Notes under the pieces: generated by a model | Seen by the model: only the letters and a program-made list of their open reading frames with translations | Told to the model about the DNA's origin: nothing | The model's database searches: none | Source of the DNA: Gaiellaceae bacterium | GTDB lineage: Bacteria; Actinomycetota; Thermoleophilia; Gaiellales; Gaiellaceae | NCBI GenBank assembly: GCA_036279015.1 | Contig: DASUJY010000072.1 | Span: 962 to 64,961 of the forward strand | Direction: 5' to 3' | DNA length: 64,000 bases | Shown here: positions 1,505 through 19,320 of the stretch, piece after piece | Layout: each line of letters starts with the position of its first letter | Numbering within the stretch: position 1 is the first letter of the stretch | Position numbers and translations under genes: made by a program

Positions 1505-1609
1505 GGTCCTCGTCTGGATCGGCCGGAAAAGACTTCTTCTAGAGGTCGCCGCTGATCGTCGCAGCCGGGCCGGACGTCGTCGTCTCCCGAAGCGCAGTGC
1601 TAGGGTGGT

Positions 1610-2569
1610 TTGCGGTGGTTCGCGCTCGCCCCACGAGCGCCAGCGGGGTGGCGCGCGCGGCTCGGGGGAGGGAGCGTAATCAGCACGCCGCCGGATCTTG
1701 GACGCAGGTTGGTCGCCGAGGCGATCGGCACAGCCCTGCTGGTCATCTTCGGCGCCGGAGCCGTGATTGCCGCGTTGAAGACCGGCAGCGGCAACCTCGA
1801 CTACGCCGGGCTCGGCATCGTCGGCATCTCGTTCGCCCTGGTGATCGCGATCGTGGTGTATGCGTTCGGAAGCACGTCAGGTGCGCACATCAACCCGGCG
1901 GTCACCGTCTCGCTCGCGGTCACGCGCCGCTTCCCATGGGCCGAGACGATCCCGTACATCGTCGCCCAGCTGGTCGGCGCGCTCGGCGGCGGTGTCCTGC
2001 TGATTGCCATCTTCGGCAAGGACGCGGTCGACCTCAACGCCACGGGCGGGACGCTGATCGGCGCGGGGTTCACGCAGACGCAGGCGGCCGTGGCCGAGGG
2101 GCTCGGCACCTTCCTGCTGGTGGCGACGATCATGGCGCTGGCCGTCGACCGCCGCGCGCCGGCCGGTTTCGCCGGTCTCGTCATCGGGCTCGCGGTCGGG
2201 TGCGAGATCATGGTCATCGGCCCCATCAGCGGCGGCTCCGTCAACCCCGCCCGGACGTTCGGCCCCTACTTGACGACGTCGATCTTCGGCGGCTCGGCGA
2301 CCTGGGATGACTTCTGGGTCTACGTGGTCGGCCCGCTGGTCGGGGGCGCGATCGCGGCCGTCGTCTACGAGCTCGTGGCGCGGCCCGGGCGGGAGGAGGC
2401 TCCGGCCGCGCAGGGGGCGGCGGGCACCGTGGAGGGCCGGCGAGCGGCCCCCGGCGAGGCGCTGCCGGTTGGCGGGCCGGAAGACAGTCCTCGACAGGGC
2501 GGTTTCCAGGGTACCGCCGGTGACATCGAGGGAAGGCGTGAAAGAGACCCGGACCAAACGAGGGACTGA
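1610..2569 (+). CDS. MIP-family channel (aquaporin/glycerol-facilitator-like) with a long charged C-terminal tail
   Basis: Two NPA boxes (HINPAVT, SVNPART) and six hydrophobic segments. The start is uncertain: candidates are TTG 1610, ATC 1679 behind a strong SD, or TTG 1709. About 70 residues follow the last TM helix. Confidence 0.9.
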   Translation: MRWFALAPRAPAGWRARLGGGSVISTPPDLGRRLVAEAIGTALLVIFGAGAVIAALKTGSGNLDYAGLGIVGISFALVIAIVVYAFGSTSGAHINPAVTVSLAVTRRFPWAETIPYIVAQLVGALGGGVLLIAIFGKDAVDLNATGGTLIGAGFTQTQAAVAEGLGTFLLVATIMALAVDRRAPAGFAGLVIGLAVGCEIMVIGPISGGSVNPARTFGPYLTTSIFGGSATWDDFWVYVVGPLVGGAIAAVVYELVARPGREEAPAAQGAAGTVEGRRAAPGEALPVGGPEDSPRQGGFQGTAGDIEGRRERDPDQTRD

Positions 2570-2587
2570 GGAAAGGAGCCGTTAGAT

Positions 2588-3823: not shown

Positions 3824-3832
3824 GGCGAGTCG

Positions 3833-3876
3833 GGGGGAGCCCGAGGCCTCAAGGTCTCGGGGCCTCGTGCTCCCCC
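3833..3876 (+). terminator. GC-rich hairpin downstream of fdhA
   Basis: GGGGGAGC(C)CGAGGCC ... GGCCTCG(T)GCTCCCCC, about 15 bp of stem, starting 10 nt after the TAA. There is no clear T-tract. Confidence 0.55.
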
Positions 3877-4015
3877 TTCGACACTGGCATCGATTCCGCG
3901 CGTATTTCGCGCCTAGATCGAATTACGCAGCTGTCCGTCAACGTGACCGGCAAGCGGCTCGCGGGCCAACACCTCACACGCTATACCTCGTACACCACAC
4001 AGCGAAGGAGGCCCT

Positions 4016-5050
4016 ATGCGAGAGAACGCGCCCGCCGCGGTCCCGGACTTCGAAGCGCTACGCCACTGCTGGCATCCGGTTCGTTTCGCCGAGGATCTCG
4101 GCGCCGAGCCGAAGCGCGCGCGCCTGCTGGGCGAGGACCTCGTTCTCTGGCGGGACTCGGCCGGGACGGCGCACGTGCTTCGGGATCTGTGCATCCACCG
4201 CGGCACCGCTCTCTCACTGGGCCGCGTCATCGGGGACGAGATCATGTGCCCATACCACGGCTGGCGGTACGGAACGGACGGCGTCTGCACCGCGATTCCG
4301 CAGCTCGCCGACCCCACGCGCGTTCCGGCCAAGGCTCGCGTGGACGCCTTCCGCTGCCTCGAACGTCACGGCATGCTCTGGGTCGCGTTCGAGGACCCGC
4401 GCTGGGAGCTCGCGGAGGTACCAGAGCTCGAGTCGTCGGAGTGGACGCTCGTGCGGGCCGGCCCCTACTCCTGGAACTCGGACTCGTCTCGTCAGCTCGA
4501 GAACTTCACCGACTTCGGACACTTCCCGTGGGTTCATCCCGGTCTGCTCGGGGATCCGGAGCGCCCGGTCGTGCCCTCGCACACGGTTCGAACCGAAGGG
4601 CACATTCTCCACTACGAGATCGTGCGGCCGGAGGCGCCGAACACCGAGGACTATCCGGTCTTCAGCAACGAGGAGACGCAGACGCCCGAGCGTCGCAGCC
4701 GGTATCAGCTCCACCTGCCGTACACGATCGTCCTGCGGCTCGGCTGGGGCGGCGAGGCGGGCATGGTCTACTTCTTCTCGTCCCAGCCCGTCGACGAGGA
4801 CCGGTGCATCGGCTACGTAACCATCGCGCGGAACTACGACCACGATCAGCCGGCGAAGGTGCTGCAGGACTTCGAGGACACGATCTTCAACCAGGACAAG
4901 CTCGTGGTCGAGTCACAGCGACCGGAACGGGTGCCGTTCGATCTCGCAGACGAGCTGCATTTGAAGTTCGACGCCGTGGCGGTTGCCTACAGGAGGGCGA
5001 TGCGTGAACAGGGGCTTGCCACGAGCACACGTCGCTCGGCCGCGGCGTGA
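4016..5050 (+). CDS. Rieske [2Fe-2S] non-heme-iron oxygenase, VanA/phthalate-family alpha subunit (possible demethylase)
   Basis: Rieske ligands CIHRG ... CPYHGWRY. N-terminal WHPV and a C-terminal catalytic region are typical of vanillate-demethylase-like oxygenases. GAAGGAGG lies 5 nt before the ATG. Confidence 0.85.
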   Translation: MRENAPAAVPDFEALRHCWHPVRFAEDLGAEPKRARLLGEDLVLWRDSAGTAHVLRDLCIHRGTALSLGRVIGDEIMCPYHGWRYGTDGVCTAIPQLADPTRVPAKARVDAFRCLERHGMLWVAFEDPRWELAEVPELESSEWTLVRAGPYSWNSDSSRQLENFTDFGHFPWVHPGLLGDPERPVVPSHTVRTEGHILHYEIVRPEAPNTEDYPVFSNEETQTPERRSRYQLHLPYTIVLRLGWGGEAGMVYFFSSQPVDEDRCIGYVTIARNYDHDQPAKVLQDFEDTIFNQDKLVVESQRPERVPFDLADELHLKFDAVAVAYRRAMREQGLATSTRRSAAA

Positions 5051-5197
5051 ACGTTGCTGGCGTCGCTCGACACGAGATTCGAGTCGCAAGCATCCGCGAG
5101 CGGGCCGTGCGGGTGATCCGGACCGCGATCGTCTAGCGGAAGGTCGCGCCAGGGGAGATCTACTCTGCGATGATCCATACTTGGCGTGAAACCCGAG

Positions 5198-5231
5198 GTG
5201 GAGGCGGCGGGAATCGAACCCGCGTCCGCGG
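5198..5231 (-). repeat. 34-nt exact copy of the ssrA 3' end (att-like direct repeat, distal copy)
   Basis: GTGGAGGCGGCGGGAATCGAACCCGCGTCCGCGG is identical to 17508-17541 in the same orientation. Similarity ends abruptly on both sides. Confidence 0.9.
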
Positions 5232-5651
5232 CCCGGCGGCTTCTGACGCCGCCACGCCATTGTCAACCGGCCCGACGGAGACCAGGCGCACGTGACTCGA
5301 GCAGAGGTAGGACGGGGGCGCCCTAGCGAACATGAATCTCGCCAGCGACCCGCGGTTCGACTCAGTCGTCTTTCGCTGTCCGGCTGGCGAGAATTGGCCG
5401 GTGGCGAGCCGCCTCGAAGGTAAGTGGCTGACCTCAGGCTCGAGTTCGACCTTCCTTCTCGCCTGGAGCAGGAACGGATCACCCTCCTCCACCGTGGCGA
5501 GCTCGCGGTCAGACCGCTCGGCAGGCCTGTTTACAGGCCGCCACTAGGCCTGCCGTCGATCGACGAGGGGGCCGTTGGGGCTCTCACAATTCCCCACGGC
5601 GAGCCGTTCGCTGTGCGGCCATTCCATCCGACGTCGTGAAAAGAGAACGGT

Positions 5652-6797
5652 CTATCGGAGGGCAGGACGGCCGTTCAGGCTCGTCCAGCCTCGTGCGTCG
5701 ATCTCCCAGACGTCGGCCACCACGCCGTTCTCGGTGAGGTTGATGCGGTCGTGGAGGTTGAGGCAGGTGCAGGCGTGGTTGGGGATGATCCGGATGCGCG
5801 TGCCAATCGGGATGTCGCACGGCTCTGCCGAGGTGACGATTGCGTGCTCCTCGTAGAGTTGGTGGATGTTGAGCTCCGGATGGCCAACGACGGTCCCGTA
5901 CCCCCCGGTCTTAGAGGTGAGCCGGTCGGAGGAGAGCGATTTCGAGCCCGTGTCAGCGATGAGCCGTCGCGGATCGGGGCGTGAGACGACGGTGCCGAGG
6001 ACGCTGAGGGCGCAGCGCGCGAGCGGTACGAGGCCCAGTGCGACCTGGGTGGCATCGTAGAAGACGTAGTTGCCCGGTCGCGCTTCGCTGATCGGCCCTT
6101 CGGCGTCGAGGTTGTGCGTGGTCGGGGTTGTGCCGACGCTGGTCGCACGAGCCTCGACGCCGAGCTCGGCCAGCATCATCTGGACGGTTCGGACTGCGGA
6201 GCCCTCGTCTGCCGCCGCGGCCCGGATGCCCTCTGCGTCTGGGGCCGCGTAGGCGAACCCGGCGAAGGCCATGAGACCGTCGAAGCGGGCATGACGGGTG
6301 GACTCGGCGACTCGGGCGATCGTCTCTGCCGTCGGCGGCTCGGGGAGGCTGCCGCAGCGGGCGGTTCCGCATTCGATCTCCCATAGGTAGGCGATCTCGA
6401 CGCCGGCTTGGCGGCAGGCGTCGTCGAGGGCGCAGGCGACGCTTTCGTCGTCCAGGGCGACGCGCAGGCGGGTCGTTGCCGCGAGCTGGGTGAGGCGGCG
6501 CAGTCTCCACTCGCCGACAGGGGGGTATGCGATCAGGATGTCGTGGAAGCCGGCTCGCGCGAGCGCCTCGGCCTCGGTGATCGTCGCGACGGTCAGCCCG
6601 CGGGCACCGTGCTCGACTTGCAGGCCCGCGATCGCGGTCGACTTGTGCGTTTTCGTGTGCGGCCAGAGTTCGACCCCGGCCCGGTCGGTTCGGGCGGCCA
6701 TTGAGCCGACGTTTTCGAGCAAGATCGGACCGTCAACGAGCAGCGCCGGTGTCTCGAGGGCGCCGAGCTCATTGGCAAGGGAGTCGTTAGCGTTCAT
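5652..6797 (-). CDS. D-serine dehydratase-like / D-threonine aldolase-like PLP enzyme (alanine racemase N-terminal fold, DSD1 family)
   Basis: ETPALLVD...WPHTKTHKS (PLP lysine context)...GLTVATITEAE...ILIAYP. ATG 6797 overlaps the upstream stop by 11 nt. The 104-codon extension in the ORF track is a read-through artefact. Confidence 0.8.
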   Translation of the reverse strand: MNANDSLANELGALETPALLVDGPILLENVGSMAARTDRAGVELWPHTKTHKSTAIAGLQVEHGARGLTVATITEAEALARAGFHDILIAYPPVGEWRLRRLTQLAATTRLRVALDDESVACALDDACRQAGVEIAYLWEIECGTARCGSLPEPPTAETIARVAESTRHARFDGLMAFAGFAYAAPDAEGIRAAAADEGSAVRTVQMMLAELGVEARATSVGTTPTTHNLDAEGPISEARPGNYVFYDATQVALGLVPLARCALSVLGTVVSRPDPRRLIADTGSKSLSSDRLTSKTGGYGTVVGHPELNIHQLYEEHAIVTSAEPCDIPIGTRIRIIPNHACTCLNLHDRINLTENGVVADVWEIDARGWTSLNGRPALR

Positions 6798-7791
6798 GGT
6801 CGAAGGGGCGGACGTGGCAGGCAGCGTGGTGTCCTTCCGTGATGGAGAGCAGGGGCGGGTCTTCGCGCTGGCAGCGCTCTTCCGCGTAATCGCAGCGGGT
6901 GCGGAAGCGACAGCCGCTCGGGATCCGAAGCGGTGACGGCATGTCGCCGGCGGTCGCACTTCGAGTCCGGACGACCGTCGGATCGGGCACCGGGGCGGCG
7001 GCGAGGAGCGCTTTCGTGTATGGGTGCTGGGGGTCCTGGAAGACCTGGTCGGTTGAACCGGTCTCGACGATGCGGCCCAGGTACATGATCGCGACCCGGT
7101 CGGCGACATGGCGGACGACGGCGAGCTGGTGGGCGATGAAGATCATCCCGAGCCCGAGTCGCTCGAGGAGGTCGTCGAGGAGGTTGAGGATCTGCGCCTG
7201 GATCGAGACGTCGAGCGCGCTGACCGGCTCATCGGCGATCAGGAACTCGGGCTGGACTGAGAGCGCCCGGGCGATCGCGACCCGCTGGCGCTGTCCGCCG
7301 GAGAGCTGGCGCGGATAGCGGTCAGCCGAAGAGGCGGGAAGACCGACGAGGTCGAGCAACTCGGCAACGTGGTCCTTCGCCCGGTTCCGGGGTATGACGT
7401 GGTGTACGAGCGCCGGCTCGGCGATCGCCGTACCGACCTTCATGCGCGGGTTGAGCGACGAGTAGGGGTCCTGGAAGACCATTTGCATGCGTCGTCGCAC
7501 GGACTGGAGGTCGCCTCGGCTGGCGCCGACGAGCTCCTGGCCGGAGAAGCGGATCGAGCCCGAGTCGGGTTCGATCAGGCGCAGGATCGAGCGGGCGAGC
7601 GTCGTTTTCCCGCTTCCCGATTCGCCCACGAGGCCGAGTCGCTCGCCCTTGCCGACGGTGAGCGAGACACCGTCCACCGCGACGGCACGGAGGCCGGGGC
7701 GCCGGCGCACGCTGTCGGCGAGCGGCCGGCGGGCGGCAAACGTCTTGCGTACGTCCGAGACCTCCAGGAGCGGCGTCCGGTCGGCGCTCAC
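6787..7791 (-). CDS. peptide ABC transporter ATP-binding protein (DppF/OppF type)
   Basis: Walker A GESGSGKTT, signature LSGGQRQR, Walker B LIADEP, and a C-terminal oligopeptide-type extension with CxxxxC. The GTG start forms a GTGA overlap with the upstream stop. Confidence 0.9.
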   Translation of the reverse strand: MSADRTPLLEVSDVRKTFAARRPLADSVRRRPGLRAVAVDGVSLTVGKGERLGLVGESGSGKTTLARSILRLIEPDSGSIRFSGQELVGASRGDLQSVRRRMQMVFQDPYSSLNPRMKVGTAIAEPALVHHVIPRNRAKDHVAELLDLVGLPASSADRYPRQLSGGQRQRVAIARALSVQPEFLIADEPVSALDVSIQAQILNLLDDLLERLGLGMIFIAHQLAVVRHVADRVAIMYLGRIVETGSTDQVFQDPQHPYTKALLAAAPVPDPTVVRTRSATAGDMPSPLRIPSGCRFRTRCDYAEERCQREDPPLLSITEGHHAACHVRPFDHER

Positions 7792-8828
7792 AGTCCGACC
7801 TCGGCGTGGAAGGGACACGCGGTCACGTGGCCGTGGCCGACGTCCTCGAGCGCCATGGAGACTTCTGTCTCGCATTGCTCACGGGCGTAGGGACAACGCG
7901 GTGCGAAGGGGCAGCCGGGCGGAAGCGCTGCCAGATCGGGCGGCTGACCTTTCACCGGGATGAGGCGCCGGTCACCCCGCTGGACGGCCAGTTCGGGGAG
8001 TGCGTTCAGGAGTGCGACGGTGTAGGGGTGCTGTGGTCGGTGGAAGAGCGCAGGCGTCGCTGCTTGCTCGACGACGTAGCCGGCGTACATGACGGTGACG
8101 CGGCTGCTCGCCTGGGCGATCACGCCGAGGTCGTGCGAGACGAGGACGATCGCCATTCCTTCCTCGCCCTGTAGCTCCCGCAGAAGGGTGAGGATCTGGT
8201 CCTGGATCGTGACGTCGAGCGCCGTCGTGGGCTCGTCTGCGAGCAGCAGCTTGGGCTTGCAGCTGATCGCGATCGCGATCATGACCCGTTGGCGCATCCC
8301 GCCTGAGAACTCGTGCGGGTAGGCCTCGAGGCGCTCCGCCGCCGACGGGATGCCGACCCGGTCGAGCAGCGAGACGGCCTCCATTCGCGCCTGCCGCCGG
8401 GTCAGCTTGCGATGGATGCGCAGCGGCTCGGCGATCTGGTCGCCGACCGTATAGACCGGGTTGAGGCTCGACATCGGGTCCTGGAAGATCATCGAGATCT
8501 CGCTGCCGCGGACACGGCGAAGCTCCCGCCCGTTCAGCCCGAGCAGATCGCGGCCTCCGAAGACGACCGAGCCGGCGATGATCTCGCCTGGATGCGGGAC
8601 GAGACGCAAGATCGAGCGGCAGGTGACGCTCTTGCCGGAGCCGGACTCGCCGACGAGGCCGAGCGTCTCGCCGGTGTAGACGTCGAAGGAGACGCCGTTC
8701 GCGGCCGCGACCACGCCGTCCCGGGCAGGGAAGACGGTGACGAGGTCGCGTACGGAGAGGAGCGGCTCCTCGCCGTGTCGGCCAGCGCCCGACAGCGCTT
8801 CGGTGGACGGATGAAGCGCTTCCGTCAG
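7788..8828 (-). CDS. peptide ABC transporter ATP-binding protein (DppD/OppD type); start codon unresolved
   Basis: [28 protein letters not shown]. There is no ATG/GTG/TTG between the upstream stop and the conserved N-terminal strand. CTG 8828-8826 (CTGA overlap) follows AAGGGGA at 7 nt. Confidence 0.85.
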
Positions 8829-9673
8829 CTGTAGATCCCCTTCTGGCCGACCTGCAGGGCGAGGAGGAGCTCGGCGAAGATGATCCCCATCGCCTCGGGA
8901 AGGTCGCTGGAGCTGAACTCGGTAATGCAGGGCGTCTTCTTGACGACGCCGGGGATGAACTCGCAGGTGGCTGCGATCGTGGTCGAGCTCCATTCGAATC
9001 CGACCCGGACCGGAAGCTCCATCTCGTACGGCTGCCGCGATGTCTCGGCGAGCGAGCGAAGCGCCCGTGCGACGCCTTCGCGGATGCCCTTCTGGGCGAC
9101 GTCGGGGTGCAGGCAGGTGGCGGCGAACATGTCGATACCGTCCTTGACCGCGAACGTCTCGAGATCGTCGCCGAGCACGCCCTTCGCTTCCCGGCAGACG
9201 GTGTCGTCGCCGGCGACGAACACGACCGGGACGCCGTAGTGACCGGCCAGGAGCGCGTTCAGCCGCGTCTCGCCGACGGGCTCATCGTTGAAGAGCATGT
9301 TCTGGATCTCCTTGCCGAGCAGCGTATGGGCGAGCACGCCCTGCTCGGTGCCGGCACAGGAGTGGTAGCCGACGAAGACGGCCGCGTCGAAGCTCTCGTC
9401 GAGGCCCTGCACCATGCACATCGGCTTGTGGAAGCCCTTGATCACACGGGCGCGCGAGTCGATCTCCTCGAGCAAGAGGTTGCGCTGGATCCAGTGCGAG
9501 TCGTTGACGAGCACCTCGTCGGCGCCGGCGTCGAAGGCGCCGAGGACGGCGGCGTTGGCATCGCCGGTCATGAACATACGGCCACGCTGGTAGTCGGATC
9601 CGTCCGGGAGGACGTCCTCCGGGTCGGTCATGGCGGTGGCGCCTTCCATGTCGACAGAGATGAAGACCTTCAA
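8825..9673 (-). CDS. D-aminopeptidase, peptidase M55 (Bacillus DppA type)
   Basis: KVFISVDMEGATAM...VLVNDSH...GYHSCAG is characteristic of M55. TTG 9673 follows AAAGGAG with 7 nt spacing. Confidence 0.85.
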   Translation of the reverse strand: MKVFISVDMEGATAMTDPEDVLPDGSDYQRGRMFMTGDANAAVLGAFDAGADEVLVNDSHWIQRNLLLEEIDSRARVIKGFHKPMCMVQGLDESFDAAVFVGYHSCAGTEQGVLAHTLLGKEIQNMLFNDEPVGETRLNALLAGHYGVPVVFVAGDDTVCREAKGVLGDDLETFAVKDGIDMFAATCLHPDVAQKGIREGVARALRSLAETSRQPYEMELPVRVGFEWSSTTIAATCEFIPGVVKKTPCITEFSSSDLPEAMGIIFAELLLALQVGQKGIYS

Positions 9674-9686
9674 CGCGCGCTCCTTT

Positions 9687-10571
9687 CTAGACGGTGAGCC
9701 GGAATCGTTCCCCCATTCGCTCTGCAAGCCCGTCGCCGACCAGGCTGAGACCGATGCCCACGACGACGATCACGGCACCGGGGAGCGTGGTGATCCACCA
9801 GGCGTTTAGGAGGAAGTTCTGTCCGTCGGCGACCATCGCGCCCCATTCCGCCTGCGGAGGGCGGACGCCGAGGCCGAGGAACGAGAGCGCCGCGACGAGC
9901 AGAATGTTCAGGACGAAGTCGGCCATCGAGAAGACGATGCTCGGCCGCAGTAGGTTCGGGATCGCGTGACGGAGGATGATCCGCGTGCGCGAGTAGCCGA
10001 GCGCCTCGCCGGCGAGCATGAACTCCTGTTCGCGCAGAACGAGCATCTCCGCCCGGCTGAGACGGGCGTACATGCTCCAGGCGACGGCGAGAACGGCGAT
10101 GTAGACGCCGGTCACCCCCGGCCCCACGACGGCGAGGATTGCGATTACGAGCACGAGGAACGGGAACGCAATCACGACGTCGACGAGCCGCATGATCACC
10201 GTGTCAACCCAGCCGCCGAAGTAGCCGGCGACCGCCCCCAGCAGGACCCCGTAGGTGAGCGGCACATACGTCGTGATGAAGCCGATCTGGAGGTCGACCC
10301 GCGCTGCGTAGACGACCCGCGAGAAGACGTCCCGACCGAGGTTGTCCGTCCCCATCAGATGGCTCCACGACGGGGGCTGGAACGCATTGATCAGGTTCTG
10401 CGCATTCGGCGGATACGGGGCGATCAGTGGCGCGAAGATCGCCACCAGCGCCACGGCGACGACGATCCCGACACCCACGTACAGCGTCGCGTTTGCCCAG
10501 CGGCGTTCGGCCCGGCCTTGACGCCGGATCCGCGCCGCGCTCGCAAGCAGCACCTCCTGCCTGGCCGCCAT
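9687..10571 (-). CDS. peptide ABC transporter permease (DppC/OppC type)
   Basis: BPD transport-system inner-membrane component with an N-terminal OppC-type segment. ATGA overlap with the upstream permease gene. Confidence 0.9.
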   Translation of the reverse strand: MAARQEVLLASAARIRRQGRAERRWANATLYVGVGIVVAVALVAIFAPLIAPYPPNAQNLINAFQPPSWSHLMGTDNLGRDVFSRVVYAARVDLQIGFITTYVPLTYGVLLGAVAGYFGGWVDTVIMRLVDVVIAFPFLVLVIAILAVVGPGVTGVYIAVLAVAWSMYARLSRAEMLVLREQEFMLAGEALGYSRTRIILRHAIPNLLRPSIVFSMADFVLNILLVAALSFLGLGVRPPQAEWGAMVADGQNFLLNAWWITTLPGAVIVVVGIGLSLVGDGLAERMGERFRLTV

Positions 10572-11506
10572 CAGGACAGGCGCACCCGCGGATCGATCAG
10601 CGCGTAGGAGAAGTCGGCCAGCAGGTTGATCACGATCACAATCAGCCCGAACACGAGCGTGAGCGCCTGGATCGTCGGGAAGTCGCGCGTGTAGATCGAG
10701 TCGACGAGGAGCTGCCCGAGCCCGGGAATGTCGAACACCTTTTCGATCACGACCGCACTCGAGATCAGCCAGCCGAGGTTGACCGCGAGCACGGTGATCG
10801 TCGAGATCGACGAGTTCCGAAGCGCATGCTTCAGGACGACTCGCGACTCGGCCACCCCGCGTGCGCGCGCCGCCTCGATGTACTCGCTCGCGAAGACATC
10901 GGTCAGGCTCGAGCGCAGCGACCGGATCAGCATCGCCGCCAGGAAGACGCCAACCGTGAACGCAGGCAGGGTCAGGTGCATGACGTGGTCGAAAAAACCC
11001 TTCCCGTACCCGGACACCGGGAAGACGCCTAGGTCGAGCGAGAGCTTGCGGATCAGGAGCAGCCCGAGCCAGAACGCAGGCATCGCGAACCCGATCAGGG
11101 TCACGATCCGGATCGTGTGGTCCGGCAGCCGGTTCCGCCGCAAGGCCGAGACGATCCCCAGAGGCAGCGCGAGCACGACCGCGATCAACGTCCCGTAGCC
11201 GAGCAGGAACAGGCTCGGCCCGAGCCGCTCCCCGACCACGCCCGAGACGGGGCGGCGCAGGATGATGGACTCACCGAAGTCGCCGTGCGTAAGGCCGCCG
11301 ACGAAGTCGAGGTACTGGGTCGGAAGCGGCCGGTCGATCCCGAGCTCGTGCTTGACCGCGGCGATCCGCTCCGGCGGTGCCTTCCCGCCCAACATGATCC
11401 GGATCGGATCACCCGGGACGGCGTGAATGAGGACGAACGCGACCAGCGTGATCCCGATCACGACCGGGATCGCGTGCAGGACGCGCAGACCGAGGAAGCG
11501 AGCCAC
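10571..11506 (-). CDS. peptide ABC transporter permease (DppB/OppB type)
   Basis: MARFLGLRVLHAIPVVIGITLVAFVL start, and an EAA-loop region YIEAARARGV. Confidence 0.9.
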   Translation of the reverse strand: MARFLGLRVLHAIPVVIGITLVAFVLIHAVPGDPIRIMLGGKAPPERIAAVKHELGIDRPLPTQYLDFVGGLTHGDFGESIILRRPVSGVVGERLGPSLFLLGYGTLIAVVLALPLGIVSALRRNRLPDHTIRIVTLIGFAMPAFWLGLLLIRKLSLDLGVFPVSGYGKGFFDHVMHLTLPAFTVGVFLAAMLIRSLRSSLTDVFASEYIEAARARGVAESRVVLKHALRNSSISTITVLAVNLGWLISSAVVIEKVFDIPGLGQLLVDSIYTRDFPTIQALTLVFGLIVIVINLLADFSYALIDPRVRLS

Positions 11507-11512
11507 GAACCG

Positions 11513-13159
11513 CTAGTCGCTGAGCGACACGTCCTCGAGCGGCCACCAGGCCGTCTTCACGGTCCGGAAGCCTTGCACCTTCGAGTTGATCCCGGTCCGG
11601 GCCGGCGTGAAGAAGAGCGCGACCATCGGCGCGTCGTCCATGACCAGCTGTTGCAGGTCGCCGAAGGCCTTCTCACGCACCGACTCCTCCAGAGTGTTCG
11701 CCGCCTGGGCGATCAGCTTCGTCGCGTTCGCGCTGTTGTACTGGGTGAAAAACGACTTCGTTCCGCCCGGAGCGGTGTAGTCGAACTGGATCGCCGCCAG
11801 CTCGTCCGGAGCGGAGACGTCGCTCGTGATGTACCAGTTCGCGCCGGCGGTGTAGTTGAAGTTGGAGAAGTTCGTGTACGCGGTGCCGATGTCGGCGTTC
11901 TGGATCTGGACGTCCACGCCGATCCCGCTCCAGCTCTCCTTCACGATCTGGGCGAGTTGCTGCGTGATCACGTCGCCAGTAGGAACGACCAGCGGAACCG
12001 TGAACCCGTCCGCGGCCGACGACTGACCCATCAGCTCACGCGCCTTGTCAAGGTCGAACGGATACGGCTCCACGTCGCTTCGCCAGTACTTCATCTTCGG
12101 CATCATGTGGTTGGCGATCTCGGCGTTGCCGAAGTAGATCGTCTGGCGCATCGCCTCCTTGTCGGTGGCGTAGTTCAGCGCCTGGCGAACACGCGCGTCG
12201 TCGAGCGGCTTCTCCGCGTTGTTCAACCAGATGCCGTCGAAGCGGTAGATCTCTTCGATCTCGACGTCGATGTCGTCCTGCTTGTCCAGCTGCTCGATCT
12301 GGGCGTACGGAATGTTGAGCGCCACGTCCGACTCGCCCGCCTGCACCTTCAGGACGCGGGTGTTGTCGTCGGGGACGTACGGGATCATGACCTCGTCCAA
12401 GAGTGGCTTGTCCGCCTTCCAGTAGTTCTCGTTGCGGGCGAGGTGCACGAATTGGCCCTTGGAGAACTTGACGAGCTTGAACGGGCCCGTGCCGACCGGC
12501 TGCTGCGCGAACTTGTCACCGAGCTCCTCGACCATCTTCTTCGGGACGATCGAGGCGGCGAAGATATTCAGATTCTGCAGGAAGGGCGCGAACGGCCCCT
12601 TCAGCTGCACCTCGACATCGGAATCGCCGGTCGCGCGCACCGACTTCACGGGGCCGAACAGGAACGAGTACGCGCTGCCCTTCGGATCGAAGATCCGCTC
12701 CAACGAGAAGATGACGTCGTCGACCGTCATCGGCGTGCCGTCGGAGAACTTCACGCCCTTGCGCAGGTGGAACGTGTAGATCGTCCCGTCCGGCGAGATG
12801 TCCCACGACTCCGCCAACGAGGGGACGACGTCCGTGGAGTTCTCGTTGATCGTCGTCAGCTGGTCGAACATGTTGTAGAGCACGTAGATCGAGCCGTTGT
12901 CGCTCGGCACGATCGGATCGAGCGAGAGCGGCTCCTCTGGGCGGGCCATCGTCAACGTCCCGCCCCGCTTGCCCGTTGCGCCGCCGACCGCCTCGGCCGT
13001 CGACGTCTCACCGCCCGCCGACCCGCCTCCACCACCGCAGGCGGCAAGAAGACTCGGCGTCGCCACCATGGCGCCGAGCCCCCCGAAGCGAATCAGCAGC
13101 TGCTTGCGCGTGATCTCGCGGTTGACGAACTCTTCCATCGACTCGAACTCGTTGCTCAC
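11513..13159 (-). CDS. ABC transporter substrate-binding lipoprotein, family 5 (peptide/nickel type)
   Basis: Signal peptide with lipobox LLAAC followed by a Gly-rich linker, then a family-5 SBP body. GTG start follows GGGAGG. Confidence 0.9.
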   Translation of the reverse strand: MSNEFESMEEFVNREITRKQLLIRFGGLGAMVATPSLLAACGGGGGSAGGETSTAEAVGGATGKRGGTLTMARPEEPLSLDPIVPSDNGSIYVLYNMFDQLTTINENSTDVVPSLAESWDISPDGTIYTFHLRKGVKFSDGTPMTVDDVIFSLERIFDPKGSAYSFLFGPVKSVRATGDSDVEVQLKGPFAPFLQNLNIFAASIVPKKMVEELGDKFAQQPVGTGPFKLVKFSKGQFVHLARNENYWKADKPLLDEVMIPYVPDDNTRVLKVQAGESDVALNIPYAQIEQLDKQDDIDVEIEEIYRFDGIWLNNAEKPLDDARVRQALNYATDKEAMRQTIYFGNAEIANHMMPKMKYWRSDVEPYPFDLDKARELMGQSSAADGFTVPLVVPTGDVITQQLAQIVKESWSGIGVDVQIQNADIGTAYTNFSNFNYTAGANWYITSDVSAPDELAAIQFDYTAPGGTKSFFTQYNSANATKLIAQAANTLEESVREKAFGDLQQLVMDDAPMVALFFTPARTGINSKVQGFRTVKTAWWPLEDVSLSD

Positions 13160-13211
13160 GAAGCCTCCCTCACTCGGTTTCGTCCACCTGCCCCCACGTC
13201 GCCCCGACTGC

Positions 13212-13826
13212 TCACCATGGCGGCGTCGCCGCCCCGATGACGATGCTCACACCCGTCGCTGACGCGTTGCGAAACGCGTGCGGCCTCTCGGTCCGAAACC
13301 GCACTGCGTCGCCCTGCGCCATCCGGTACGGCTCGTCGCCGACGAGCAAGTCGACCGCTCCCTGGAGCACGTAGGCGAACTCCTCGCCCGCGTGCGCGAT
13401 CTTGTCGTTCGCGTATCCGCCGCCCGGCTCGAACGAGAGCAGGTAGGGCTGCAACTGGTGGCCCTTGCTCGGTCCGAGGAGCTGGTAGAGAACGCCCTTC
13501 CCGCGGCGAACGCCTGGAGTCGTGGCCGCAGCCCCCCGAAGAACCTCGACGTCGTCGCCGCCGTCTCCCGGGTTCTCCGCTTCCGCCAGCAGCTCGGTGA
13601 GCTGGAGACCGAAGTGGTCGGCGACCTGCTGCAGCCGGCGTAACGACACACCGCCCTTGCTGTTCTCGAGCGCCGACAGCGACGACGCGGCCATGCCGAT
13701 CGCCCGCGCTTGCTCGCGTAGGCTCAAACCCGCCTGGATGCGAAGCCGTCTAATCCGCTGACCGACGAACTCGGCGAGGCCGTCGTCACTCGGTATCTCT
13801 CTCGCCGCTACGGACTGTCCACTCAA
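13212..13826 (-). CDS. XRE-family HTH transcriptional regulator with C-terminal cupin domain
   Basis: HTH region GQRIRRLRIQAGLSLREQARAIGMAASSLSALENSK, and a cupin region HAGEEFAYVLQG...GDAVRF. Best start is TTG 13826. It sits directly upstream of the dpp-like operon and diverges from the DUF1611 operon. Confidence 0.8.
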   Translation of the reverse strand: MSGQSVAAREIPSDDGLAEFVGQRIRRLRIQAGLSLREQARAIGMAASSLSALENSKGGVSLRRLQQVADHFGLQLTELLAEAENPGDGGDDVEVLRGAAATTPGVRRGKGVLYQLLGPSKGHQLQPYLLSFEPGGGYANDKIAHAGEEFAYVLQGAVDLLVGDEPYRMAQGDAVRFRTERPHAFRNASATGVSIVIGAATPPW

Positions 13827-13847
13827 ACTGAACGCCGACGTTAGAGT

Positions 13848-13864
13848 GTTCGGCAGTGCCGAAC
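13848..13864. promoter_or_regulatory. perfect palindrome GTTCGGCA-G-TGCCGAAC in the divergent control region (candidate operator)
   Basis: 8-bp arms. It lies in the 29-bp gap between the XRE/cupin gene start and the DUF1611 gene, and covers the GTG start at 13856. Confidence 0.4.
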
Positions 13865-14953
13865 GTAGCACCTGGCTCCCGGCGGCGCAATCCCGTACCG
13901 AGGCGCTACCTCGTCCTCGCCGAAGGCCACGCGACCGACCTACACCACGGAAAGACGATGCGCGGCTTGCTCCGCTACCGCCGGGACGAGGTCGCCGCGA
14001 TCCTCGACTCCGAGCACGCCGGCGAGGAGATCGAGGGTGTTCCCGTCGTCGCAACCGTCGCGGACGGCCTGGGCCACGGGCCGAATGCCGCATTCATCGG
14101 AGTGGCGCCCGCCGGCGGACGACTGCCCGCCGTCTGGCACCAGATCCTCCGAGATGCTGTCGAAGCGGGCCTCGACGTCGAGTCGGGGATGCACGTCTTC
14201 CTCGCCGACGACCCGGAGCTGGCCGCGCTCGCAAGCGAACGCGGCGTCGAGCTCCGCGACCTCCGCCGCCCTCCTGCGGGCCTCTCCGTTCCCACGGGGG
14301 CGAACCTGGAGCATGACGCGGCGGTTGTCCTCACCGTCGGATCCGACTGCGCGATCGGGAAGATGACCGTAAGTCTCGAACTCGACCGGACCGCGCGCGA
14401 ACGTGGACTCGCATCCGTCTTCGTCCCCACCGGCCAGACCGGGATCGCCATCGCCGGCTGGGGCGTCTGTGTTGATGCGGTCGTCGCTGACTTCATCGCC
14501 GGCGCGACCGAACGGCTCGTCGTCGAAGGCGCCGACCGCGGCGACCTCCTCTGGGTCGAAGGACAGGGGTCGCTCGTCCACCCGCAGTACTCCGGCGTCA
14601 CGCTCGGTCTCTTCCACGGGAGCGCTCCGCATGTCCTCGTCCTCTGCCACGAGGCGGGCACGACCCAGATCGAAGGCTGTCCCGGTCACCCGATCCCGCC
14701 CCTGCGCGAGCTCGTCGAACTCCACGAGCGGATGTCGCTCCCAGCCCGCAAGGCCCGCGTGGCCGCCGTCGCGCTCAACACGCGTCGCCTCGACGAGCGC
14801 GAGGCGCGCGCCGCCGCCTCGGCCGTCGAGGACGAGGTGCGCCTCCCCGCGGACGACCCGGTCCGCTTCGGTGCCGACCGGCTGCTCGACGCCGTCCTCG
14901 CCGCACTCCCCGAGCGACACCCCCGGACACGGAACCCAATCGCCGCCCGATGA
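13856..14953 (+). CDS. DUF1611-family protein (P-loop; family linked to D-glutamate/murein-peptide metabolism)
   Basis: RRYLVLAEGH...GKTMRGLLRY...VAAILDS N-terminal Rossmann-like part, and a Walker-A-like GSDCAIGKMT. Confidence 0.75.
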   Translation: MPNVAPGSRRRNPVPRRYLVLAEGHATDLHHGKTMRGLLRYRRDEVAAILDSEHAGEEIEGVPVVATVADGLGHGPNAAFIGVAPAGGRLPAVWHQILRDAVEAGLDVESGMHVFLADDPELAALASERGVELRDLRRPPAGLSVPTGANLEHDAAVVLTVGSDCAIGKMTVSLELDRTARERGLASVFVPTGQTGIAIAGWGVCVDAVVADFIAGATERLVVEGADRGDLLWVEGQGSLVHPQYSGVTLGLFHGSAPHVLVLCHEAGTTQIEGCPGHPIPPLRELVELHERMSLPARKARVAAVALNTRRLDEREARAAASAVEDEVRLPADDPVRFGADRLLDAVLAALPERHPRTRNPIAAR

Positions 14954-16113
14954 CGCCGCCTGCGATCGATCCAGACGCGTTGGGCGACTTCGCCCGCCGC
15001 CTTGTCAGCGTGCGCAGCCCCTCCGGCGAGGAGGGCGACCTTGCCGTGCTCGTCGCCACCGAGATGGAGCGCCTCGGCTTCACCGTCGAGGTCGACGAGC
15101 TCGGAAACGTGATCGGCACGGTCGACGGCGGGCCGGGCCGGTGCGTCCTCCTCGACGCGCACATGGACACCGTCGGGGTCACCGACCCGTCCGCCTGGAG
15201 CCACGATCCGTCCGGGGAGATTGCGGACGGTCGCCTCTGGGGCCGTGGGGCGATGGACATCAAAGGCCCGCTCGCCGCTGCGATCCACGGGGCCGCCTCG
15301 TTCGCGGCCCACGTCGCCGGCCGCATCGTCGTCTCGGCGAGCGTCGCCGAGGAGCTCGTCGAGGGACCCGCGCTCGCCGAGATCGCCAAGCGCGTCCTCC
15401 CCGATACCGTCGTCATCTGTGAGGCCACCTCGCTTCGGATCGCGCGCGGCCAGCGTGGTCGCGCCGAAGTCCAGGTGGAAGTGCTCGGGAGCCCTACCCA
15501 CACGGCCCGACCGGAGCTCGGTGTCAACGCCGCCGAAGGAATGGCCGACGTCATCGCCGAGCTGCGCTCCCTCGAACTACCGACGCATCCCGTCCTCGGC
15601 GACGCGATCCTCGTCCTCACCGACGTCATCTCGCGGCCCTACCCCGGCCTTTCGGTCGTCCCGGACAGGTGCGTGGCAACGTACGACCGCCGCACGCTTC
15701 CCGGCGAGGACGAGGAAGCGGTGCTCGAACCGGTTCGCGCCACCCTCGAGCGGGCGCTCGCACGAACCGGCGCCTCCGGCAAGACACGGATAGCTGACGA
15801 CGACTTCGCGACCTACACGGGAGCCCGCCTGACGGCGCCGAACTTCGCGCCCGCCTGGTTCTACGACGACAACGCGCCACACGTTCGCACCGCGCTCGAC
15901 GCTCTCCGAGAAGCGGGTCTTCCGGCCGAGCTCACGCACTACGCGTTCTGCACGAACGGGAGCGCAAGCGCCGGACGGCTGGGCATCCCCACGCTCGGCT
16001 ACGGCCCGGGCGACGAGGCGCTCGCGCATCGCATCGACGAGCACATCGAGCTCGCAGAGCTCGAAGCCGGCTCCCGCGGCTATGCCGCGCTCACCGCCGC
16101 GCTTACCGGGTGA
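14950..16113 (+). CDS. M20-family metallopeptidase/deacylase (YgeY-like)
   Basis: SPSGEE...LLDAHMDTVGV...GRGAMDIKG are M20 motifs. ATGA overlap with the DUF1611 gene. Confidence 0.85.
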   Translation: MTPPAIDPDALGDFARRLVSVRSPSGEEGDLAVLVATEMERLGFTVEVDELGNVIGTVDGGPGRCVLLDAHMDTVGVTDPSAWSHDPSGEIADGRLWGRGAMDIKGPLAAAIHGAASFAAHVAGRIVVSASVAEELVEGPALAEIAKRVLPDTVVICEATSLRIARGQRGRAEVQVEVLGSPTHTARPELGVNAAEGMADVIAELRSLELPTHPVLGDAILVLTDVISRPYPGLSVVPDRCVATYDRRTLPGEDEEAVLEPVRATLERALARTGASGKTRIADDDFATYTGARLTAPNFAPAWFYDDNAPHVRTALDALREAGLPAELTHYAFCTNGSASAGRLGIPTLGYGPGDEALAHRIDEHIELAELEAGSRGYAALTAALTG

Positions 16114-17249
16114 CGCGGCTTCTGCGAAACTCCGGTCGCGGGCCGCTTCCCCGCTCTACGGCGCCGAGCGGCGAGCCGCTCGCCTACCACCGCCGTCTGC
16201 CCGGCTACCAGCCAACACCGCTCGTCGACGCGCCACGGCTCGCGAGGCGGCTCGGCGTCGGTCGCGTCTCGGTCAAGGACGAATCGGCCCGGCTCGGATT
16301 GCCCTCGTTCAAGATCCTCGGCGCCTCCTGGGCGACATACTGCGCCCTCCGCGAGCGCTTCCCCGAACGACTCGACGGCTGGGAGACGTTCGACGAGCTC
16401 GCGGCCCGCACCCGCATGCTCGGCCCGCTCACGCTCGCCGCCGCCACCGACGGCAACCACGGCCGGGCACTCGCCCGCATCGCAGCCCTGCTCGGCCTGA
16501 CCGCCCGCATCTACGTTCCCGCCGGCACGGCGCAAGCACAGATCGACGCCATCACCGGCGAAGGAGCAGCCGTTACGGTCGTCGACGGAACCTACGGCGA
16601 CGCCGTCGCCCGTTCGGCCGCCGACGCGGACGACCGCTGCCTCGTCGTCTCCGACACCTCGTGGCCCGGCTACGAAGACACACCGCGCCGCGTCATCGAC
16701 GGCTACTCGACGATCCTTTGCGAGATCGACGACCAGCTCGAGGCCCGCGGCTGGTCGCCGCCGGACGTGGTCTTCGTTCAGATCGGCGTGGGGGCACTCG
16801 CAGCAGCGGTCATCCGTCACGTCCGCCGTCGCGACAGCAACCCGCTCATCATCGGCGTCGAACCAGTCGACGCCGCCTGCGCCCTCGCCTCTGCCGAGGC
16901 AGGCGCCATCGCGAACGTCCCCGGTCCGCACCGTTCGATCATGGCCGGGCTCAACTGCGACGCCCCCTCCCTCGTCGCCTGGCCAACCCTGTACACCGGA
17001 ATCGACTGGTTCCTGGCCCTCGACGACACGTGGGCGGCGGAGGGAGTTCGAGCCCTCGCGGACGAAGCCATCGTCGCAGGCGAGACCGGAGCGGCCGGCG
17101 CAGCGGGAGCACTAGCGCTCGCCACAGAGCCCACATCGCCGCAGGACATTGGGCTACACCCACAAGCCCACCTCCTCGTCCTCTGCACCGAGGGCGCTAC
17201 CGATCCAGAAACCTACGCCGCGTCAACCGGCGACTGTATGGCATCGTGA
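16110..17249 (+). CDS. diaminopropionate ammonia-lyase-like PLP enzyme (YgeX type)
   Basis: DESARLGLPSFKILGASWA (PLP lysine), ATDGNHGRALA, tryptophan-synthase-beta fold. GTGA overlap with the upstream gene. Confidence 0.85.
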   Translation: MTRLLRNSGRGPLPRSTAPSGEPLAYHRRLPGYQPTPLVDAPRLARRLGVGRVSVKDESARLGLPSFKILGASWATYCALRERFPERLDGWETFDELAARTRMLGPLTLAAATDGNHGRALARIAALLGLTARIYVPAGTAQAQIDAITGEGAAVTVVDGTYGDAVARSAADADDRCLVVSDTSWPGYEDTPRRVIDGYSTILCEIDDQLEARGWSPPDVVFVQIGVGALAAAVIRHVRRRDSNPLIIGVEPVDAACALASAEAGAIANVPGPHRSIMAGLNCDAPSLVAWPTLYTGIDWFLALDDTWAAEGVRALADEAIVAGETGAAGAAGALALATEPTSPQDIGLHPQAHLLVLCTEGATDPETYAASTGDCMAS

Positions 17250-17508
17250 GCACACCGCCGGGCCATCCTCCAAGATCATGTCCACACAACCCACATTTGC
17301 AGCGGTTTCTTCGGGTGGTCAATGCCCCCCGCGTCCATCCGCGGCCGATCCTGTGCGACACGTCAGTGCACCGTTTCGCCCGGAGATAATCTCCTCCGCT
17401 CCGTCCGCTTGAGCTCCAGCATCTGCACCACAAATCGACCCGAGCCGGTGTCTGCGCGACGGTTAAGTGGACGTCAGAAGACGCTGATTTGCAGCGATTT
17501 TTATGAAG

Positions 17509-17866
17509 TGGAGGCGGCGGGAATCGAACCCGCGTCCGCGGACGCACCGGAGAGAGCCTCTACAAGCTTGTCCTGCGCTTTGAATTCGCCCGCCGGCCGG
17601 TTCGCAGGCGACCTACCGACGGACTAGCCATCCTTTGAAGTCCCGCTCCGGGCGATTGGCTCTCCCTCGGCGGCGAGCCCGTTTCTGGCGCCGGATTCCG
17701 TCCCACGGGCCGAAGACGGAGCGACGTCGCTACCTAATTACTTAGGCAGCGAGTGCGAGATCGTTCTTCGCACTTGCGTTGTTCCCGGTTGTTTTACGAG
17801 GCCGACCGGGGACCTCGGCTTGCAGCTCTTCCGGAGAACCGACCACGTCGAAGCCAGGTCGCCCCC
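17509..17866 (-). ncRNA. ssrA: tmRNA (SsrA)
   Basis: The 5' end GGGGGCGACCUGGCUUCGACGUGG pairs with the 3' CGCCUCC(A). T-arm is GCGGGUUCGAUUCCCGC. An internal tag frame at 17786-17742 reads (G)NNASAKNDLALAA-UAA. CCA is not fully encoded. Confidence 0.93.
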
Positions 17867-17879: not shown

Positions 17880-18899
17880 CTAGCGCCAGATCGTCGCCAT
17901 CGGGCTCACGTCGGCCGCGTGGGCGAGGTGCGTGCCGATGCCGAAGCCGTCCTCGACGGTGCGCAGGACGCTGTAGTGGTAGTACGAGCCTCCGTACTCG
18001 CCAGCAGCGACCAGCGGGCTGATCACGAAGCAGGCGACGTGGCCGCCCGAGCCGAGGCCGTTCTTCTTCGCCATGCCGTCCTGGCGTTGATCCTCGTCGT
18101 ACGTGACGATGATGACGCCGTCCGAGCCGAAGGCCGGCGAGGTCTCGATCTTCGGGATCTCTCGCTCGAGGAACGCGTCGAACTGCCGAATGCGGCCGTT
18201 GATCGGCTTGCAGTTCGATTCTCCGTCCTCGCAGCCGTTCGGGAGGACGAGATTGAAGTTCGGCACGTCGCCGGACGCGAGCGCGTCGTCGAAGATGTAC
18301 ATCGGCCGGTCCGCCTCGTCGCCCGCATAAATGTCATTCGCGAGGCACTCCTCCGACTTCGCCGTCTCGGACCAGACGCCGCCGACACCCTCGATGTTGT
18401 CGTAGTTGATGGGTGGATTCCCCGTCGTGTAGAAGCCTGTCAACGGGCAGGCGCCCTGCGGGGCGCAGCTTCCGCCCGAGCCGGTGTCGCATTTCGCCGT
18501 GCCGCCCTCGAGCCAGGTCTTCCACGTGAGGCCGTTGACGTCGAGCTGGTGGTAGATGTTGTTCACGTCCTGATGGCAGGCCGCGCCGCCGTCCTGCTGC
18601 TGGCAGCGGTTGAACTGCCCGGAGGTGAGGGCGATGTAGTTCGCCTGCGACCAGTGCGTGGCCGCACGGTAGTTCGTGAACCAGGCCGAGCGCGGACGCA
18701 GCGTCCCCATCATGTAGGGCGCCCTCGTCGCGTCGAGGTGCGTGTAGGTCGTGTTCTCACCGACGATGAGGAAGACGTGCCCGAAGCGCGGGATGCCCTC
18801 GAGTCCGGTCGTCGGAGCCCCGGCGATGCGCGCGCCGGCGGGAGATGCGGTGACCAGACACGCAACCGCGCTGAGCGCTACGAGAAGGGAGCGCCGCAT
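17880..18899 (-). CDS. secreted phosphoesterase-family protein (acid phosphatase/phospholipase C-like fold)
   Basis: Signal peptide MRRSLLVALSAVACLVTASPAGA. HVFLIVGENTTY and VIIVTYDED resemble phosphoesterase-family motifs. Cys-rich. Confidence 0.6.
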   Translation of the reverse strand: MRRSLLVALSAVACLVTASPAGARIAGAPTTGLEGIPRFGHVFLIVGENTTYTHLDATRAPYMMGTLRPRSAWFTNYRAATHWSQANYIALTSGQFNRCQQQDGGAACHQDVNNIYHQLDVNGLTWKTWLEGGTAKCDTGSGGSCAPQGACPLTGFYTTGNPPINYDNIEGVGGVWSETAKSEECLANDIYAGDEADRPMYIFDDALASGDVPNFNLVLPNGCEDGESNCKPINGRIRQFDAFLEREIPKIETSPAFGSDGVIIVTYDEDQRQDGMAKKNGLGSGGHVACFVISPLVAAGEYGGSYYHYSVLRTVEDGFGIGTHLAHAADVSPMATIWR

Positions 18900-18992
18900 C
18901 GTCCTGCGATTCTCCCGCGCCCAACGGCTCGGCGCAACCCCGGCGCTAGCGGCTCCGATCCGCCCCGCTTCCCATTGCCTTCCCAGTCGGGT

Positions 18993-19217
18993 TCAGCAGG
19001 TGTCTGCCGAGCGCCGCCTCCGGTGAAGCGCCGTGATGACCCCGACGTTCGCCGCCACGATCGCCAGCGAGATGGCAAGCCGGTACCACCACGCCGTGTC
19101 GTCTCTGAGCACCTGCTGCTGAACCGCGACGATCGGGACGATCGGGACGACATAGGTCCAGAGCGGAGCCCAACGGCCTTCTGCAGCCTCGCACCTGAAC
19201 AGCGCGCTTCCTCTCAT
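18993..19217 (-). CDS. small membrane protein (74 aa, two predicted TM segments)
   Basis: The ATG follows AAAGGGGAA. Hydrophobic stretches are LWTYVVPIVPIVAV and LAISLAIVAANVGVITAL. No family recognised. Confidence 0.4.
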   Translation of the reverse strand: MRGSALFRCEAAEGRWAPLWTYVVPIVPIVAVQQQVLRDDTAWWYRLAISLAIVAANVGVITALHRRRRSADTC

Positions 19218-19320
19218 CCGGTTCCCCTTTCGAATCGTAGTGCGAAGAAACAGGGTGGCCGAAGCGTCAGCGGGTCGCAGTGGGGTCAGCGTGCCTCTCG
19301 AAGTACGGGCAGCCGAACCG

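Follow-up and report, generated by a model that had tools for sequence, protein, structure and literature searches.

A stretch of DNA from a Gaiellaceae bacterium raises the question of how a set of metabolic and transport genes came to lie between the transfer-messenger RNA (tmRNA) gene ssrA and a detached copy of the 3' end of that same gene. The stretch analyzed here, referred to as the window, is 64 kb long and is part of a 74-kb contig (DASUJY010000072.1) of a Gaiellaceae metagenome-assembled genome (MAG; GCA_036279015.1; source samples SRR25158421 and SRR25158533). Based on the anatomy of the two copies and on the ssrA loci of related genomes, positions 5232-17507 are likely to be a genomic island that arrived by site-specific integration into the 3' end of ssrA, catalyzed by a tyrosine integrase, with displacement of the original 3' end.

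The junctions can be read directly from the sequence. The 34-mer GTGGAGGCGGCGGGAATCGAACCCGCGTCCGCGG matches the window exactly twice, at 5198-5231 and at 17508-17541, both on the plus strand. No further match occurs in the window at up to 3 mismatches, and the chance expectation is 0 in 100 dinucleotide-preserving shuffles. Similarly, no degenerate third copy of the 25-nt core is present on either strand of the window with up to 6 mismatches allowed. The copy next to the gene is the end of an intact ssrA, for which ARAGORN made one call at 17508-17866 on the minus strand (tag AKNDLALAA), and the Rfam model RF00023 is covered in full (1-374) by positions 17506-17866 with 171.9 bits. The boundary features are as follows.

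17508-17866, minus strand: ssrA, intact tmRNA gene (ARAGORN, RF00023, sequence); its last 34 nt are the proximal repeat, an attL-type junction
17508-17541, minus strand: proximal 34-nt repeat copy, the 3' end of the tmRNA
5198-5231, minus strand: distal 34-nt repeat copy (sequence match), an attR-type junction and putatively displaced tmRNA 3' fragment

In the orientation of the tmRNA, the repeat reads CCGCGGAC-GCGGG-TTCGATT-CCCGC-CGCCTCC-A-C. It is composed of 8 nt, the complete T-arm (stem GCGGG, loop TTCGATT, stem CCCGC), the 3' acceptor strand CGCCTCC, the discriminator A, and one C. The 5' sequence GGGGGCG at 17860-17866 pairs with the acceptor strand, a G3:U wobble included. The distal copy adjoins no tmRNA body and lies on the 3' side of ssrA, 12.3 kb away, and the identity between the two copies breaks off immediately at both edges. 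An earlier note on this DNA had described exact direct repeats, an intact tmRNA gene ending in the second copy, and a first copy without a tmRNA body and with abrupt limits of identity; the repeat count, the ARAGORN and Rfam results, and the sequence at the edges bear out each of these points. An intact tmRNA gene thus bounds one end of the segment and a direct repeat of its 3' portion bounds the other, as in islands that target tRNA or tmRNA genes. Collectively, the repeat occurs in two copies, chance is excluded, and one copy is the true tmRNA 3' end, all of which argues for integration at this site.

To place the locus among its relatives, we used SmpB as a single-copy anchor and collected 80 loci from GTDB species representatives, among which the best SmpB matches are MAGs of Gaiellaceae, Gaiellales, and Thermoleophilia with 70-81% identity. 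ARAGORN located tmRNA genes in 34 related loci, 29 of which have at least 2 kb after ssrA. The flanks reach at most 9.5 kb after ssrA, so islands of the size seen in the window would escape notice there. When a second copy was defined as a match to the last 24 nt of the locus's own tmRNA with up to 3 mismatches, 8 of the 29 loci had one (L004, L006, L016, L019, L030, L032, L033, and L041). These second copies lie 0.5-5.4 kb downstream, always in direct orientation and nowhere else in the locus, and the blocks of identity are 24-38 nt long and start just 5' of the T-stem, like that of the window. The tmRNA 3' end as such is nearly invariant among the relatives.

Moreover, several of these loci carry a tyrosine integrase or its remains at the same site. 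In L019 (uncultured Thermoleophilia MAG, CAWEXL010000004.1), a 3.6-kb element holds an intact tyrosine integrase (PF00589 with a SAM-like N-domain) that abuts ssrA and is encoded on the other strand; between the repeats there is also an HTH_17 excisionase-like gene. Pfam confirms an 82-aa C-terminal integrase fragment beside ssrA in L033 and integrase pieces adjoining ssrA in L008 and L027, while L023, L028, and L032 show integrase fragments at the level of BLAST. Five islets (L004, L006, L016, L030, and L032) have cargo and no integrase, and integrase loss is therefore common at ssrA in this lineage. Across those five, the cargo comprises a glyoxalase, an ABC-2 transporter, an aldehyde dehydrogenase with a cyclase-ATPase, peptidoglycan peptidases, and an AraC regulator. 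Judged by these loci, ssrA is a recurrent integration hot spot, active or formerly active, in Gaiellales and Thermoleophilia, and integrase loss is the rule there. The loci L032 and L033 add a further feature. They are 90% identical up to ssrA and share short modules in swapped order after it (L032:11216-12504 and L033:11242-13211). A 74-bp piece consisting of the attachment (att) site plus flank lies after ssrA in L032 and after the second repeat in L033, and an integrase remnant (77% identity) lies after ssrA in L033 and after the second repeat in L032. This order looks like a reshuffling of att-flanked modules.

The ends of the relatives' elements show some details of their own. In L016, the repeat (3750-3820 and 9170-9240) extends about 44 nt past the tmRNA 3' end, to about 68 nt in total with 3 mismatches; the att copy of its element would therefore have held post-gene sequence. 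The motif GGAACGTTGC/GGAACGTTAC/GGAATGTCAC stands directly 5' of the T-stem at the distal copies of L004 (~13685-13697), L016 (~9158-9170), L032 (~12277-12289), and L030 (~15215-15227). Its presence in unrelated loci suggests a family of related element ends. The distal copy of the window lacks this motif. Several related MAG contigs stop right after the tmRNA gene, among them L002 and L022, which end 39 and 54 bp after ssrA; this fits repeated att copies or strain heterogeneity in short-read assemblies.

Between the repeats of the window, 11 tightly packed metabolic and transport genes form two divergent blocks, one on the minus strand and one on the plus strand. Among these 11 genes, Pfam and NCBIfam detect no integrase, excisionase, transposase, or transfer gene. 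Phage structural, replication, and packaging genes are likewise absent by the same two databases, all island genes being metabolic, transport, or regulator genes. Classical, self-encoded islands in tRNA or tmRNA genes carry their integrase inside, usually beside the targeted gene, and none was found inside this one. The non-coding sequence left between the genes and the repeats is confined to two spacers.

17250-17507, no strand: ssrA-proximal non-coding spacer, 258 bp, 59.3% GC, without integrase trace; the position of the integrase gene in relatives
5232-5651, no strand: distal non-coding spacer, 420 bp, 66.0% GC, its open reading frames (ORFs) without family match

Neither spacer yielded a sign of a former recombinase. 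Their ORFs gave no Pfam match up to an E value of 1 except a weak, sub-threshold match to COP23 (E 0.0012), and nothing recombinase-like. In tblastn searches with the relatives' integrases, the translated tmRNA end was all that matched, and a hidden Markov model (HMM) built from those integrases reached a best E value of 0.24 over all ORFs of the window. A weak tblastn match at 60.4 kb was rejected as an integrase, as it corresponds to the PrmC/RF-1 region. In addition, the two spacers and the outer flank had no significant blastn match in any of the relatives' loci. The absence of recombinase and mobility genes asserted in the earlier note thus holds by Pfam, NCBIfam, tblastn, and HMM alike, and the integrase pseudogenes for which it had proposed looking in the two spacers left no trace. 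Its description of the spacers was accurate in size (420 and 258 bp) and in the low GC content of 17250-17507; the distal spacer is not clearly GC-poor, since its 66.0% compares with 68.7% for the window and resembles other intergenic DNA.

Small structures occur at both inner edges. A terminator-like hairpin on the plus strand at 17482-17496, just before ssrA, is followed by ATTTTTAT. At the other edge, the hairpin GGCGGC-(7 nt)-GCCGCC at 5235-5253, with a 6-bp stem, lies 3 nt from the distal repeat. Its loop on the tmRNA strand is GTCAGAA, which is similar to an anticodon loop, and ARAGORN finds no tRNA there. The adjoining 13-mer GAAGCCGCCGGGC (5232-5244) is found in L004 as well, near the distal repeat there and at another distance.

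On the integration account, a circular DNA that itself bore a copy of the terminal ~34 nt of ssrA would have entered the cell. A tyrosine integrase of the kind found beside ssrA in related Gaiellales would have recombined the copy on the circle with the chromosomal gene. This recombination would have rebuilt an intact ssrA at 17508-17866 from element DNA, and the 3' end that the gene had before would have come to lie 12.3 kb downstream, at 5198-5231. Relatives have their integrase gene directly beside ssrA, on the other strand; here that gene would later have been deleted, with the 258-bp spacer left in its place. Alternatively, the island may never have had an integrase and may have used one in trans. 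The scar would accordingly surround a cargo-only island, whether that island is the decayed form of an element or is cis-mobilizable. The reading of the two copies as attL and attR, put forward in the earlier note, is supported by the anatomy of the repeat and, indirectly, by the second tmRNA 3' copies in 8 of the 29 related loci.

The distribution of the island genes also bears on this account. The genes of the island follow ssrA in none of the 34 related loci, and the genes of the left flank (methyltransferase, aquaporin, alcohol dehydrogenase, and Rieske oxygenase) are absent there as well; the region downstream of ssrA is therefore variable across the lineage. For the ammonia-lyase, the one island protein searched with taxon labels, the best homologue among 5.8 billion proteins has 65% identity, while the core neighbors SmpB and RNase R have 77-81% identity in Gaiellaceae. 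Most named homologues of the ammonia-lyase belong to Chloroflexota lineages and a few to Chthoniobacterales or unclassified Actinomycetota; Gaiellaceae are not among them. Two ammonia-lyase homologue contexts showed no synteny with the island, and a metagenome scan for the DUF1611 protein returned homologues of at most 74% identity, without shared neighbors or tmRNA. The distant homologues of this one cargo protein, the variable locus, and the integrases at the same site in relatives would all support an origin by integration.

Several observations weigh against this account. No empty-site allele was found among the genomes searched, the nearest of which has 81% SmpB identity, because the collections contain no genome closer than that. 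The genomes, metagenomes, and viral contigs searched yielded no related element with this cargo; in IMG/VR, 0 contigs carry the 34-mer or the island genes. The 29-nt tmRNA end is present in 94 IMG/VR contigs and is uninformative because it is too widely conserved. No integrase remnant was detected in either spacer by tblastn, by the Pfam scan of spacer ORFs, or by the custom HMM. In addition, exact-protein look-ups with SmpB, the Rieske protein, and the ammonia-lyase led to nothing but short Logan contigs, which match the window at 100% identity and come from the same strain; they place the strain in at least 2 samples. Two of them, from two sequencing runs, stop inside the repeat copies (L082, window 3616-5224; L083, window 14338-17532). 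Such breaks are to be expected when an assembler with k=31 meets a 34-bp repeat. The contigs therefore give no independent confirmation of the joins.

The composition of the island belongs with these points, as it is weakly atypical and the flank beyond the distal repeat is equally so. GC content is 67.9% in the island and 68.7% in the window as a whole, and the tetranucleotide distance of the island to the rest ranks 6th among 52 equal-sized segments. In a second test, in which 5-kb segments were compared with the 46 kb right of ssrA, all segments left of ssrA are mildly atypical (z 1.1-2.5), none exceeds the reference maximum, and the flank at 1-5197 is as atypical as the island (z ~2.2). 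The k-mer comparison suggested in the earlier note thus shows a weakly atypical island without a clearly foreign composition, and does not discriminate between the readings. Such values would be compatible with an ameliorated island or with a donor of similar composition, and there are hints that the variable region extends beyond 5198.

A refinement of the integration account holds that the island is still mobile, as a cis- or trans-mobilizable element similar to the cis-mobilizable elements (CIMEs) described below. Its att sites would be recombined by an integrase encoded elsewhere or by a co-resident ssrA element, and a 12.3-kb circle would be excised that could insert again or move along with a helper. 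The two 34-nt sites match perfectly, integrases specific for the ssrA site exist in the lineage, and the permuted modules of L032 and L033 are what would be expected if att-flanked modules shuffle. The concept has also been applied to the integrase-less ssrA islands of Dehalococcoides (PMC3146451). However, the window encodes no integrase of the relatives' family, as the HMM search indicates. The identity of the two sites limits the age to no more than a few percent neutral divergence; since 34 identical nucleotides are expected for any event younger than that, the identity is no proof of maintenance. We regard present mobility as conceivable and rather doubtful.

A different history would make the repeats older than most of what they enclose. 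They would then be left from an old, small integration or from a tandem array whose inner att sites decayed, and most of the 12 kb would have come or been rearranged later through homologous recombination, insertion, and deletions. Indeed, the relatives have small, mosaic islets (0.5-5.4 kb), the two divergent operons of the cargo have homologues elsewhere that show no synteny, and the composition left of ssrA is uniformly slightly atypical with no change at the distal repeat. In contrast, a search with the 25-nt core and up to 6 mismatches finds no degenerate internal att copy, the closely spaced genes share a regulator and fit together in function, and the small islet sizes come from flanks of at most 9.5 kb, in which larger islands would go unseen. 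This history appears unlikely. Its tandem-array version was set aside as unsupported, the window holding no further degenerate repeat copies.

Finally, it is highly improbable that the second copy arose by chance, is what remains of a second tmRNA gene made by duplication, or results from a chimeric assembly at a stretch that is conserved in co-occurring Gaiellales. The window does come from a MAG, relatives hardly differ in the tmRNA 3' end, and the short-k Logan contigs break inside both copies. However, shuffles yield 0 chance matches, the repeat covers the terminal 34 nt alone in direct orientation as in relatives with integrases, and a 34-bp repeat would be spanned by single reads if the contig was assembled like the many related MAG contigs named k141. 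These readings are essentially ruled out, since each of them, a chimeric join at either copy included, would still call for an isolated tmRNA 3' fragment next to DNA of the island.

The integration account having thus been weighed, we turn to what the island carries. The genes between the repeats are listed below.

5652-6794, minus strand: pyridoxal 5'-phosphate (PLP) enzyme with the fold of D-serine dehydratase/D-threonine aldolase, 3-hydroxy-D-aspartate aldolase-like (Pfam Ala_racemase_N and D-ser_dehydrat)
6787-7875, minus strand: ATPase of a Dpp/Opp-type ATP-binding cassette (ABC) transporter, DppF/OppF-like (Pfam, NCBIfam)
7788-8993, minus strand: Dpp/Opp-type ABC transporter ATPase, DppD/OppD-like (Pfam, NCBIfam); true start probably downstream of 8993
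8825-9727, minus strand: M55 D-aminopeptidase, DppA-like (Pfam Peptidase_M55, E 5.8e-91; NCBIfam DppA, 215 bits, below cut-off)
9687-10571, minus strand: ABC permease, DppC/OppC-like (Pfam, NCBIfam)
10571-11506, minus strand: ABC permease, DppB/OppB-like (Pfam, NCBIfam)
11513-13159, minus strand: family-5 solute-binding protein, peptide/nickel type (Pfam SBP_bac_5, E 5.4e-94)
13212-14093, minus strand: regulator with helix-turn-helix and cupin domains, PuuR-like (Pfam, NCBIfam)
13856-14953, plus strand: DUF1611/DgcN-like N-acetyltransferase of D-amino-acid metabolism (Pfam DUF1611_N and DUF1611; NCBIfam DgcN, 281 bits, below cut-off)
14950-16113, plus strand: YgeY-family M20 hydrolase (NCBIfam PRK13004, 361.9 bits, above the cut-off of 321; Pfam M20)
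16110-17249, plus strand: diaminopropionate ammonia-lyase, YgeX-like PLP enzyme (Pfam PALP; source names of homologues)

Two of the gene limits call for comment. The mechanical ORF of the PLP enzyme at 5652-6794 extends to 7109, with a likely start near 6794; this enzyme scores 153 bits against NCBIfam BhcC, below the cut-off of 690. The regulator gene probably spans about 13212-13790 and is divergent from the next operon, because its domains begin at residue 104. By family membership, the cargo is a self-contained and coherent catabolic module with its own regulator, combining a Dpp-type peptide importer with enzymes of D-amino-acid metabolism. Its function is probably the uptake and breakdown of peptides containing D-amino acids for use by the host.

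Integration into ssrA with a direct repeat of the 3' end has long been established (sources cited in PMC3146451). Among the ssrA islands of Dehalococcoides, 15 are without an integration module and were interpreted as possibly cis-mobilizable or fixed (McMurdie et al. 2011, PMC3146451). The island in the window resembles these in its bounds (ssrA on one side, a direct repeat of the gene's 3' end on the other), its metabolic cargo, and its variable locus, and in that many of the Dehalococcoides islands are integrase-less too. In contrast, the Dehalococcoides repeat has 20 bp and occurs in long tandem arrays, whereas the window has a single island with a 34-bp repeat. The recombinase of Dehalococcoides is the serine recombinase DsiB within a six-gene integration module, while the window's relatives have tyrosine recombinases (PF00589). 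No DsiB integration module beside attL, nor any recombinase, occurs in the window island. The cargo differs as well, being reductive dehalogenases in Dehalococcoides and D-amino-acid and peptide catabolism here.

CIMEs belong to the literature on integrative and conjugative elements and integrative and mobilizable elements, with the streptococcal ICESt1/3 family as an example; they are mentioned in PMC3146451, PMC5704250, and PMC6323972. Like CIMEs, the island is flanked by attL and attR and has no recombination, conjugation, or mobilization genes, so that both structural marks of a CIME are present. However, CIME status also demands demonstrated or inferable mobilization by a related element that shares the att sites, and the 64-kb window contains no such helper. 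To our knowledge, no conjugation genes are known for elements of this lineage.

A sublocation scheme for islands and prophages that target tRNA and tmRNA genes through tyrosine integrases was reportedly set out by Williams in 2002 and 2003 (cited as ref. 24 in PMC3146451). The island is similar to such elements in that the repeated block runs from the T-arm to the 3' end, element DNA would have made the gene complete again, and the displaced fragment sits at the opposite end. Unlike them, it has no integrase next to the tmRNA gene and no phage or conjugation genes. A close structural counterpart in our comparison is the L019 element, which has the same target and orientation and a block of 33 nt starting within 2 nt of that of the window. 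In content, the two are the reverse of each other: L019 has an integrase, an excisionase-like gene, and almost no cargo, while the window island is all cargo with no recombination genes.

These comparisons set the scope of the result. The mechanism is a familiar one (an integration scar in a tmRNA gene, together with CIME status or the loss of the integrase), and the conceptual gain is small; the island of the window differs from the Dehalococcoides islands in lineage, repeat length, cargo, and the recombinase type of its relatives. For Gaiellaceae, soil actinobacteria that are abundant yet hardly cultured, the analysis provides a record of integration targeted at ssrA, and it flags a portable module for the catabolism of D-amino acids and peptides. 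Most islets at ssrA in this lineage are without an integrase, and island finders anchored on integrases would therefore miss such elements. More speculatively, ssrA could act as an integron-like platform for gene cassettes in Gaiellales and Thermoleophilia, on which a few trans-acting tyrosine integrases capture, reorder, and exchange recombinase-less modules of 0.5-12 kb that each carry an ssrA 3' copy. We consider this improbable; if it were true, the island of the window would be the largest such cassette among the loci examined.

Outside the repeats, the flank at 1-5197 contains genes for a methyltransferase, an aquaporin, a Zn alcohol dehydrogenase, and a VanA-type Rieske oxygenase. The nearest homologue of the Rieske protein has 80% identity and belongs to Solirubrobacteraceae. 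It is possible that this flank is an older island extending past the edge of the window. Within it, the ORF at 1089-1679 matches only positions 1-44 of the 285 positions of a transaldolase profile (E 2.9e-5, below the cut-off) and could be either truncated or spurious. On the other side, the SmpB gene lies 1.4 kb upstream of ssrA. A phosphoesterase-family gene stands between smpB and ssrA (window 17880-18899; 18900-19320) and has no counterpart at this place in the related loci. Among the relatives, the spacing from SmpB to ssrA ranges from ~0.4 to ~8 kb, and the upstream side of ssrA is thus variable too.

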